A DNA stretch of 64,000 bases from Gammaproteobacteria bacterium (lineage in GTDB: Bacteria > Pseudomonadota > Gammaproteobacteria > JABDBA01): the NCBI GenBank assembly GCA_013288885.1, contig JABDBA010000001.1:467840-531839 (forward strand), written 5' to 3'. The translations under genes and the position numbers were made by a program. Shown here one piece after another: positions 9,366 to 11,983 of the stretch. Under the pieces are notes generated by a model. That model saw nothing but the letters and a program-made list of their open reading frames with translations. It was not told where the DNA came from and ran no database searches. Numbering within the stretch: position 1 is the stretch's first letter; each line of letters begins with the position of its first letter.

Positions 9366-11983
9366 CCACTACCACTCTCGATACTATATCGCAACACACA
9401 CCCGTCATGCAGCAATATCTGCGCTTAAAAGCGCAGTATCCTGATAAATTATTATTTTATCGTATGGGTGATTTTTATGAATTATTTTTTGCTGATGCGC
9501 AAAAAGCCGCGCGTTTATTAGATATCACTTTGACTAAACGTGGGCAATCTGCGGGTGAACCGATTCCCATGGCAGGGGTGCCTTATCATAGCGTCGAAAG
9601 TTATTTGGCAAAATTAATTAAGTGTGGTGAATCAGTGGTGATGTGTGAGCAGGTGGGTGATCCCGCAACCAGTAAAGGGCCTGTTGATCGTCAAGTGATG
9701 CGTATTTTAACACCAGGTACGGTGAGCGATGAAGCCTTATTAGAAGAGCGTAACGATAGTTTATTGGTGGCGTTGCATGGGCAAGGTGAGCAATTTGGTT
9801 TGGCTTCGTTGGAGATTGCCAGTGGGCGTTTTCATGTGTTGCAAGTGTCGGGCAATGAAGCGTTGATGAGTGAATTGACACGATTGAATCCGGCGGAATT
9901 ATTGATCAGTGAAGATATGACTGTGCCGTGGTTAAACGATCGCAAAGGTTTGCGCAGGCGCGCTCCATGGGAATTTGAGTTAACTACGGCAACACGTTTG
10001 TTGACCCAGCAATTTCAAACGCGTGATTTGTCCGGTTTTGGTTGTGCTGATTTACCGTTAGCGATCTGCGCTGCAGGTTGTTTGTTGCATTATGCCAAAG
10101 AAACACAACGTACTGCCTTACCACACATTCGCGCGTTACAAATTGATCGCCGCGAAGAATGTGTGATTTTAGATGCCGCCACGCGTGCTAATTTAGAATT
10201 AACGACAAATTTAAAAGGTGGTATCGAAAATACCTTGGCATCGGTAATCGATAAGACCATGACTGCGATGGGCAGTCGTTTGCTGCGGCGGTGGTTGCAT
10301 CGTCCGCTGCGTGATCACACCGTTCTTAAATTACGCCAACAAGCGATAAATGATTTATTGGAAAAACGTGTATTTGCAGGGCTGCAAGAATTATTGCAAG
10401 GTGTGGGGGATATGGAACGTATAGTTGCGCGCGTGGCTTTAAAAACCGCACGTCCGCGTGATTTAGTGGGTTTGCGTGCGGCATTGGGGGTGTTGCCTAA
10501 AATTGCTGCTGATTATAAAATCAAAATCCCCCCTAACCCCCCTTTTTCAAAGGGGGGAACAGGAGATGTCTCATTTTCAAAGGGGGGAATCACTCTTTTA
10601 GAACAATTATATATCCAGATCAAACCTTATCCCGAGTTATTTGATTTATTGCAACGTGCGGTCATGGAAAATCCACCCGTGGTGATCCGTGATGGTGGTG
10701 TTATCGCAGCAGGTTATAATGCGCAATTAGATGAACTGCGCAATTTAAGTGAAAACGCCGGGCAATATTTAATTGATCTGGAAACGCGCGAGCGGCAACG
10801 TACCGGTATTAGTACCTTGAAAGTGGGTTTTAATCGTGTGCATGGGTTTTATATTGAAATCAGTCGTGGTCAAGCGGCGCAAGCGCCCGTGGAATATATT
10901 CGTCGCCAAACGTTAACCAATGCTGAGCGTTATATCACGCCGGAATTAAAAGAATACGAAGACAAAGTATTAAGCGCCCGCAGTCGCGCGTTAGCGTTAG
11001 AAAAACAACTCTACGAAGAATTATTAGAAAAATTATTATTGGAAATTGCACCGTTACAACAAACTGCTGCTGCATTAAGTGAACTCGATGTATTAACTTG
11101 TTTTGCTGAGCGTGCCGAAACATTAAATTTTGTTTGTCCTGAATTAGTGGCAACGCCGGGCATTCATATCGAAGCAGGGCGTCATCCGGTGATCGAGCAA
11201 GTGTTAGATAATCCGTTTGTACCGAATGATACGCAATTAAATCCCGATCGCCGCATGTTAGTGATCACCGGCCCTAATATGGGTGGTAAATCCACCTATA
11301 TGCGGCAAACCGCTCTCATTACTTTGTTAGCGATGGTGGGGAGTTTTGTGCCTGCTAAACGTGCGCAGCTAGGGCCGGTCGATCGTATTTTTACGCGTAT
11401 CGGTGCAGCTGATGATTTAGCCAGTGGCCGTTCTACCTTTATGGTGGAGATGACGGAAACCGCGAATATTTTACATAACGCCACTGAAAAAAGTTTAGTG
11501 TTGATGGATGAAATCGGTCGTGGCACCAGCACGTTTGACGGTTTAGCGTTAGCATTTGCTTGTGCGGAATATCTAGCGCAGCATTTGCGTGCATTCACGT
11601 TATTCGCCACGCATTATTTTGAACTCACCGCCTTACCCGAAAATTTACCACAAGTAGCAAATGTGCATTTAGGTGCGGTAGAGCACGGCGATAGCATTGT
11701 GTTTTTATATGCGGTGAATGCAGGCCCAGCCAGCCAAAGTTATGGAATCCAAGTTGCGCAATTAGCAGGTGTGCCACGCAACGTGATCAAGCGTGCAAAA
11801 GAAAAATTAGTGGAATTAGAAAATCAGAATGTGATGAGCCACCATAACCCAGTGCAAAGAGATTTTTTTGTGCAAGCTGCTGCTGATCCACATCCTATAA
11901 TAGAAGCATTGAAAAAAATTGAACCTGATCAACTCTCGCCCAAAGAAGCATTGGAAGTTTTATATCAATTAAAAAACTGTTAA
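9362..11983 (+). CDS. mutS: DNA mismatch repair protein MutS
   Basis: [31 protein letters not shown], Walker [23 protein letters not shown]. Confidence 0.97.
10527..10590 (+). repeat. In-frame palindromic insertion inside mutS (encodes [22 protein letters not shown])
   Basis: CCCCCCTTT..AAAGGGGGG hairpin (10537-10557), plus a direct repeat of TTTTCAAAGGGGGGAA (10544-10559 and 10574-10589). The mutS loop here is about 22 aa longer than my recalled E. coli MutS alignment. Confidence 0.6.

Follow-up and report, generated by a model that had tools for sequence, protein, structure and literature searches.

The mutS Gene and Its Palindromic Insert

The 64,000-nucleotide stretch of DNA analyzed here (the window; contig C1, 467840-531839) belongs to G000, a 2.59-Mb draft metagenome-assembled genome in 49 contigs with 40.5% GC and 84% completeness. 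On its forward strand, at positions 9362-11983, lies mutS, an open reading frame (ORF) of 873 amino acids (P0001) that is intact and translates without interruption although it hosts a copy of a palindromic repeat. The product matches Escherichia coli MutS over residues 5-872 at E=0 (alignment to 7ou2, 1e3m, and others) and has the architecture of a five-domain MutS1 mismatch-repair ATPase, with Pfam MutS_I-V and MutS_C all present, the Phe-X-Glu mismatch motif, and Walker A and B. GDFYE is found at residue 36, Walker A at 637, STF at 689, Walker B at 714, and FATHY at 748. The gene is still under purifying selection despite the insert, the ratio of nonsynonymous to synonymous divergence (dN/dS) being 0.09-0.11 by the Nei-Gojobori method against two insert-bearing homologues, values that are approximate because dS (1.3-1.5) is near saturation. 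The nearest neighbors of this MutS are those of “Coxiella sp. DG_40” and “Legionellales bacterium UBA7366”, a grouping that would make the host a deep-branching, uncultured Coxiella/Legionellales-like gammaproteobacterium.

The repeat copy occupies positions 10524-10590 on the plus strand in the order AAATCCCCCC-TAA-CCCCCCTTTTTCAAAGGGGGG-AACAGGAGATGTCTCA-TTTTCAAAGGGGGG-AAT, for a net gain of about 20 codons. It is a nested palindrome. The outer left arm, TCCCCCCT at 10527-10534, pairs with 10581-10588 and encloses an inner hairpin, CCCCCCTTT-TTC-AAAGGGGGG at 10537-10557, whose arms (10537-10545 and 10549-10557) are complementary at nine of nine positions. A second TTTTCAAAGGGGGGAA unit at 10574-10589, the G6 tract of which is the outer right arm, is 100% identical to 10544-10559 at a spacing of 30 nt. 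The encoded peptide (10526-10594, residues 389-411) is rich in Pro and Gly and forms a loop that connects helices 365-388 and 412-419 of MutS core domain III.

When folded as RNA, 86 nt around the copy form a nested structure of -34.8 kcal/mol (z = -3.05), and none of 200 dinucleotide shuffles was as stable. The fold comprises the outer stem TCCCCCCT/AGGGGGGA, the inner 9-bp hairpin, and a small third hairpin, and the two main stems recur when the segment is folded as DNA. In 100 shuffles of the window, the chance expectation for the 21-nt core was 0.00 occurrences.

Much of this had been seen in an earlier note on the same DNA, which described the C6T3/A3G6 hairpin, a 16-bp direct repeat, an undisturbed frame with all downstream MutS motifs, and a string of 66 nt read in frame as 22 residues (389-410 of the ORF), all of which we recovered. 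The string lies at 10526-10591 rather than at 10527-10590, one base off at each end, and the element begins earlier than the note had it, with the AAAT at 10524. The note also overlooked that the direct repeat is the standard second unit of a repeat family.

A Dispersed Repeat Family

The earlier note had allowed that the element might occur nowhere else in the genome, and this is not the case. A search of G000 with the pattern CCCCCCTTT(N≤10)AAAGGGGGG returned 41 occurrences. The copies, once oriented and aligned, have AAATCCCCCCTA[A/G]CCCCCCTTTTTCAAAGGGGGGAA[C/T]AGGAAG in common and are divergent outside it, the nested-hairpin core being AAATCCCCCCTA[A/G]CCCCCCTTTTTCAAAGGGGGGAA. An nhmmer profile of the copies found 86 matches in G000 at E<0.01, of which about 48 have E values below 1e-8, and most are intergenic. 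The mutS copy is matched at C1:478362-478409 (E=2e-15) and equals the consensus across the 34-nt core.

The family has a core unit of 43 nt and a long form of about 67 nt, in which a second TTTT(T)CAAAGGGGGG unit follows 13-15 nt downstream. The mutS copy has this long form, as do the intergenic copies at C11:29954, C23:5678, C7:42481, and C35:5403. Because these intergenic copies have the same two units, the 16-nt direct repeat is a regular feature of the family, and a local duplication inside mutS is ruled out as its source. In the long form the outer arms TCCCCCCT/AGGGGGGA pair as terminal inverted repeats, as in a miniature inverted-repeat transposable element (MITE); short-form copies are without the right arm. 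A second variant of the family has an insert of about 21 nt, GC-rich, between two C tracts, and inverted doublets are found at C21:18706 and C29:14567. The consensus, AAATCCCCCCTAGCCCCCCTTTTTCAAAGGGGGG, has CTAG or CTAA between its C tracts and is without the GTAG head typical of repetitive extragenic palindromic (REP) sequences. A search of Rfam with the element gave only two chance-level matches (E ~0.7).

The 19-nt core was present in 22 of 401 sampled genomes of the class, with 73 matches in G000 (36 forward and 37 reverse), 60 in G240, 18 in G339, and 17 in G355; a control pattern read backwards had no occurrences across the 401 genomes. Such patchiness is as expected from a repeat that is mobile or multiplies in bursts. 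In G028, of the same genus as G240, the core is absent, and this contrast of 60 versus 0 copies between congeners would suit a search for the mobilizing enzyme.

The homopolymer arms are not of one length in all copies (C7, G7, G8, and G9 being found in those at C7:44025, C18:23627, C22:1651, and C23:5678), which indicates that the C6/G6 tracts slip; any such slip in the mutS copy would be a frameshift. Other repeat types, among them a CCCTCTCCCCCTGGGAGAGAG-type palindrome and a ...CTCGCAATGACA... motif, adjoin family copies at C8:19740-19800, C10:12480, C16:4700, and C23:19190, and repeats thus appear to nest or cluster in G000. A cluster of related hairpins with a TTTTTCAAAG loop and different stems (CCCTC/GAGGG) was observed in the recA-recX spacer of the genome encoding another MutS homologue, P0110 (L115:7646-7939), and hints at a superfamily in which the loop is conserved and the stems are variable and co-vary.

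Insertion in a Predicted Disordered Loop of MutS

When aligned with the G000 protein, E. coli MutS has a gap of about 20 residues that coincides with the element, in the core domain III loop ...LPELRAQLETVDSAPV|QALREKM..., which corresponds to approximately residues 388-392 of the E. coli protein and lies between two helices. The earlier note, with its figure of about 22 residues, was correct in placing extra length here, and the equally long loop that it allowed for in all orthologues is not found. Among the 119 closest MutS homologues (63-81% identity, from a collection of 5.8 billion proteins), 104 have the loop at its baseline length. The same is true within ±1 residue for 76 of 78 broader gammaproteobacterial MutS proteins (54-63% identity), none of the 78 having an insert of at least 13 aa, and the loop is short in all but one of 25 genomes of the same class. 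The insert is likewise absent from mutS in five other genomes that are rich in the element. Small extensions are seen in the sister protein P0002 (+7 aa) and in the next relative, P0024 (+3 aa).

An AlphaFold2 model of the G000 MutS, built on 41 homologues (mean predicted local distance difference test score [pLDDT] 80.8, predicted template modeling score 0.77), superposes on the E. coli crystal structures 1e3m/1ng9 with a target-normalized template modeling score of 0.82. Helices are modeled at residues 365-388 and 412-419 with pLDDT of at least 90 in the flanks, and no secondary structure is assigned to residues 389-411, where pLDDT falls below 50 at 395-408. Based on this low pLDDT and lack of secondary structure, the insert is predicted to be a disordered loop joining two core-domain helices, in agreement with the surface exposure for which the earlier note had proposed a structure model.

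Recurrent Inserts in the Same Loop

We counted about 12 independent internal insertions of at least 6 aa among the 119 homologues and G009, a genome from the class sample. About eight of these are in the loop described above; in the 119 homologues, insertions of this size were confined to that loop and three other places, with two cases at position ~192 and one each at 336 and 828. Independence of the loop events was judged on a MutS tree with the loop masked. The sisters P0001 and P0002 were counted as one event and P0005 and P0027 as another. P0003 and P0006 each have an event of their own, the insert being lacking in P0004, a relative of P0003 with ~90% nucleotide identity, and in P0008, the sister of P0006. 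The remaining events are those of P0034, P0110, P0119, and G009.

The loop inserts of the other lineages are unrelated to each other and mostly strong palindromes, five unrelated strong palindromes being counted. They comprise CCCTCTCCCAGAGGGAGAGGG in P0003, the REPIN-like GTAGGGGCGAGCGGCGCTCGCCC...GGGCGACCGCCGGTCGCCCCTAC in P0006, TGTCATCCTGAGGAGCG...CGCTCGGGATGACA in P0110, a perfect 23-bp inverted repeat, TTAAGGACGCCTCTCGAAATTGA, in P0034, and GGGCGAAAAGCATTTCGCCC in G009. Some of the other MutS-loop inserts (L114 and L013) have the GTAG head typical of REP sequences. Against mononucleotide shuffles, fold z-scores of the loop were -10.0 in P0034, -7.7 in G000, -7.5 in P0006, -6.4 in P0110, -5.9 in P0005, -2.7 in both P0003 and P0002, and -1.4 in P0119, compared with +0.7 in the insert-free P0004. 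No second copy of these other inserts was found within their 6-22 kb loci, and the G009 insert had only weak partial matches to its hairpin part within G009 (E 0.3-1.7), so it is their palindromic architecture that suggests they too are members of repeat families.

The C6/G6 family itself is found at the same codon position of mutS in L111, the locus of P0005, which is 77% identical and not a sister to G000. The copy is of the short form and reads ATG AAA ATC CCC CTT AAT CCC CCT TTT TCA AAG GGG GAA AAT. P0027 has an AT-rich remnant of the same length, TTT CCT TCT AAT TTT TTA TCT TCA GAA AAT, in which folding has been lost (z = -0.4), and P0002 has a degenerate hairpin of 10 codons at the same place in the loop. 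These three cases indicate that inserts arrive, persist, and erode to ordinary loop sequence.

At about residue 336 of another homologue (P0064, locus L141), a 9-aa insert, GGPMCPPVP, is encoded by a small hairpin (GGCGGGC...GTCCGCC, z = -2.7). This is a different loop, indicating that other MutS loops also occasionally take palindromes.

Copies in and at Other Genes

In G000, a copy of the repeat falls inside an ORF of 150 aa or longer, with more than 25 aa to either side of it, at only four loci. Coding DNA is thus strongly depleted of the family, and every surviving copy keeps the frame. A HemW-like radical-SAM gene (C21:16591-16654) contains a copy in the opposite orientation, in frame, that adds 19-20 aa relative to five relatives. 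In an MdtB-like resistance-nodulation-division (RND) efflux pump (C4:56773-56836), a diverged copy with four core mismatches is in frame as EIPPTPPSAKEGTD; it lies in the cytoplasmic loop that follows the sixth transmembrane helix and lengthens the protein by approximately 13 aa compared with E. coli MdtB. Two copies form the inter-domain linker of a PurL-like ORF of 975 aa (C4:27266-27391). This double element has the look of a 45-aa insertion, but the linker of Thermus thermophilus PurL is of similar length, and insertion versus replacement is ambiguous; no comparable PurL was found in the five relatives searched.

At gene ends, an ldcA-like carboxypeptidase (C1:431023), a budA-like acetolactate decarboxylase (C9:16198), and lgt (C18:23640) each take their final residues and stop codon from the repeat, which may also form the N-terminus of recX, directly after recA (C1:370885). 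Three of the six frames are open through the full element, and five through the 21-nt core alone. Frame +2 is used in MutS, the possible RecX N-terminus, the RND pump, and the MutS of L111; frame -0 in the HemW-like gene, the ldcA-like C-terminus, and the PurL linker; and frame +0 in an ABC-transporter ATPase of L111. The stop-bearing frame -1 (PPLKKGG and stop) provides the ends of the budA-like and lgt genes, stop codon included, and only the open frames +2, -0, and +0 were found in the middle of genes. The ATPase case is an inverted doublet of the family lying in frame at L111:9783-9837 (Logan contig SRR21279722_3081).

Origin of the mutS Insert

We consider it very probable that the mutS segment is a copy of a short, non-coding, REP/MITE-like nested-palindrome repeat with about 50 copies in the genome, tolerated in frame in a floppy MutS loop that has been colonized again and again. 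The family, which we infer to be selfish or neutral, would have been multiplied by some copying mechanism to about 50 copies in G000, with a patchy presence in other genomes of the class, and one copy would have landed inside mutS. Its survival there would have required a net added length that is a multiple of three, no stop codon in the mutS frame, and a landing point in a solvent-exposed, unstructured loop between two domain III helices. The C6/G6 arms would be read as Pro-Pro and Gly-Gly, which are helix-breaking and loop-favoring, and the ~20 extra residues may thus act as a floppy linker without disturbing the fold. Selection would purge copies that break genes, which would account for the position of nearly all copies between genes or at gene ends and for the preserved frame of the few in mid-gene. 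In related lineages, both this family and unrelated palindromes have entered the same loop time after time, and old inserts would have been eroded by point mutation to ordinary loop sequence.

Several points weigh against this interpretation. A search limited to PF01797, whose control was positive in 6 of 14 known genomes, detected no Y1_Tnp/RAYT gene in G000, which is 84% complete. No consistent target-site duplications were found across 43 aligned copies; AATC stands on both sides of the mutS copy but overlaps the element ends. With neither a transposase/RAYT nor a clear target-site duplication found, it is copy number and distribution that point to mobility. The closest sister, P0002 (81% amino acid identity), has its degenerate hairpin at the insertion point, and the boundaries of the insertion are therefore approximate. 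Furthermore, the mutS copy matches the consensus perfectly though synonymous sites are near saturation relative to the sister (dS ~1.5), which could reflect recent re-insertion, gene conversion, or selection on the hairpin. Finally, that the insert is translated is deduced from the sequence and not from observation, and its permissive surface position is a prediction drawn from low pLDDT and missing secondary structure.

The clustering of inserts in one loop could alternatively be due to targeting at the DNA level, for example by an AAAAT or AT-rich stretch resembling the 5' end of the element or by a replication-linked, hairpin-prone site, instead of a protein-level filter. The inserts of G000, P0002, and P0005 start right after AAA-AT(C/T), the insert-free P0004 has AAAATT there, and the element's 5' end, AAATCCCCCC, provides microhomology, which leaves room for targeting of the C6/G6 family; two clades that are not sisters also have this family at one and the same codon, whether by arrival or by persistence. 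However, the unrelated elements differ in their ends (GTAGGGGCGA..., TGTCATCC..., TTAAGGACGCC...) and their entry points scatter over about 3-4 codons past the helix end. Scattered entry and unrelated termini fit a permissive loop better and favor a selection filter acting on the protein over a single DNA target. The family's intergenic copies share no upstream flank, and genomes rich in the element are without the mutS insert. We therefore regard DNA-level targeting as an unlikely cause of the hot spot.

It is very unlikely, in our judgment, that the insert has been co-opted and is kept by selection, either as an mRNA hairpin that throttles or processes mutS expression or as a frameshift switch whose C6/G6 tracts would turn mutS into a contingency mutator locus. 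The nested hairpin proved stable against both dinucleotide and mononucleotide shuffles, four G/C runs of 6 nt fall within 67 nt compared with 435 such runs genome-wide, slippage happens to judge from the tract lengths of other copies, and the perfect consensus copy amid saturated synonymous sites would also suit this idea. Conservation of the insert is not seen: the sister has a degraded 10-codon version, pairing has been lost in P0027, most relatives have no insert, and neither do the five other element-rich genomes. The same element moreover sits in unrelated genes and is mostly intergenic.

The possibility that a metagenome assembler joined the halves of mutS through a collapsed repeat, the real gene being split or without the insert, we hold to be highly improbable. 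The assembly is an incomplete draft, the protein cluster of this MutS has one member from one contig, and short repeats are classic sites of mis-joins. Nevertheless, both junctions keep the mutS frame and homology to the E. coli protein is colinear on either side, and the element, at 67 nt, is below typical read length. L111, assembled independently from a different sample (SRR21279722), has this family at an identical codon position of its mutS, a third assembly (L112) has a degenerate version at the same place, and other lineages have other palindromes in the same loop. The remaining alternative, that the loop is ancestral, ordinary protein sequence and its likeness to the repeats coincidental, or the repeats derived from it, finds some encouragement in the slightly longer loops of P0002 and P0024 and is effectively refuted by the identity of the 34-nt core to about 40 dispersed, mostly non-coding copies, by the baseline loop in most homologues, and by a palindromic architecture that would be pointless for a peptide.

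Comparison with Known Repeat Systems

Palindromic repeats lying in frame within genes are a textbook oddity of Rickettsia, and the earlier note had likened the mutS insert to them. The resemblance is supported as an analogy of behavior, not as homology, by the further in-frame copies in the HemW-like gene and the RND pump. Rickettsia palindromic elements (RPE-1 to RPE-10) are described in PMC10969869 as selfish repeats found in frame at fold-compatible positions (Ogata et al. 2000, Science 290:347; Ogata et al. 2002, Genome Res 12:808). Both RPEs and the present family are dispersed palindromic families without a protein of their own, found in frame in unrelated housekeeping genes and tolerated where the fold allows. 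The host lineage of the present family, like that of the RPEs, looks intracellular or host-associated. RPEs differ in being ~100-150 nt long, as opposed to ~43-67 nt, in sequence, and in having nearly half of their copies in ORFs, whereas only ~4-5 of the ~48 strong copies in G000 are mid-gene. In addition, the present host is a gammaproteobacterium of Coxiella/Legionellales-like MutS grouping, and the peptide is Pro/Gly-rich, from homopolymer arms. Because it is much shorter, unrelated in sequence, and in a gammaproteobacterium, the comparison supports treating the element as RPE-like in behavior only and not as a member of the RPE family.

QMITE1 and QMITE2 of Coxiella burnetii are small non-autonomous repeats with ~50 copies in a gammaproteobacterial lineage related to the present host (Wachter et al. 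2018, PMC5896051). Like the present family, some of them run into ORFs, to which they contribute C-terminal residues and stop codons, and they are occasionally found in frame in the middle of an ORF (PMC5896051). By their description they are distinct, measuring 150-400 bp with direct repeats of 2-11 nt, in contrast to 43-67 nt and no evident target duplication, and their in-frame mid-ORF cases were reported in hypothetical proteins (PMC5896051), whereas the hosts here are well-characterized enzymes of essential type, namely MutS, a HemW-like protein, and an RND pump. The RPE/QMITE literature that we searched held no case of several unrelated elements recurrently colonizing one orthologous loop, which is no proof that this is unreported for RPEs, and nothing relevant to palindromic inserts in mutS was found in the literature searched.

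REP sequences and REPINs are short imperfect palindromes of 20-40 nt with a GTAG head, mobilized by RAYTs and present in tens to hundreds of mostly intergenic copies; their insertion inside coding regions is unusual. The present family is likewise a short palindrome with mostly intergenic copies and inverted doublets, and differs in the missing GTAG head and in the failure to detect Y1_Tnp/RAYT in the 84%-complete genome.

Implications

The loss of mutS creates mutators and relaxes barriers to recombination, and the identity of the host gene makes a link between the element and the mutation rate of its host worth testing, although nothing here shows such a link. At its most far-reaching, our interpretation would make the domain III inter-helix loop a recurrent landing pad for selfish palindromes across a Coxiella/Legionella-like clade, with at least eight inserts, the C6/G6 family arriving twice, and a series from fresh to eroded; in the boldest version, the G/C tracts would render mutS prone to frameshifts and so raise the mutation or recombination rate of the host and thereby the spread of the element. 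We offer this as a long shot. If true, it would provide a natural time series of mobile hairpins creating new protein sequence.

In-frame selfish palindromes are of a known kind, and the observation added here is the repeated colonization of one MutS loop across a clade. The process known from Rickettsia RPEs is now seen in what is probably an uncultured gammaproteobacterium, Coxiella-like and deep-branching, and the element is here far smaller, with arms that would encode Pro-Pro and Gly-Gly. For gene callers and aligners, it is an example of why MutS length varies in these lineages, and it offers a clean system in which to separate insertion-site preference from filtering by selection. A single defined loop in a repair enzyme that is conserved universally has taken up many palindromes independently, of which the old ones decay, and these inserts together amount to a natural map of a permissive site in MutS that may be useful for tagging or engineering.

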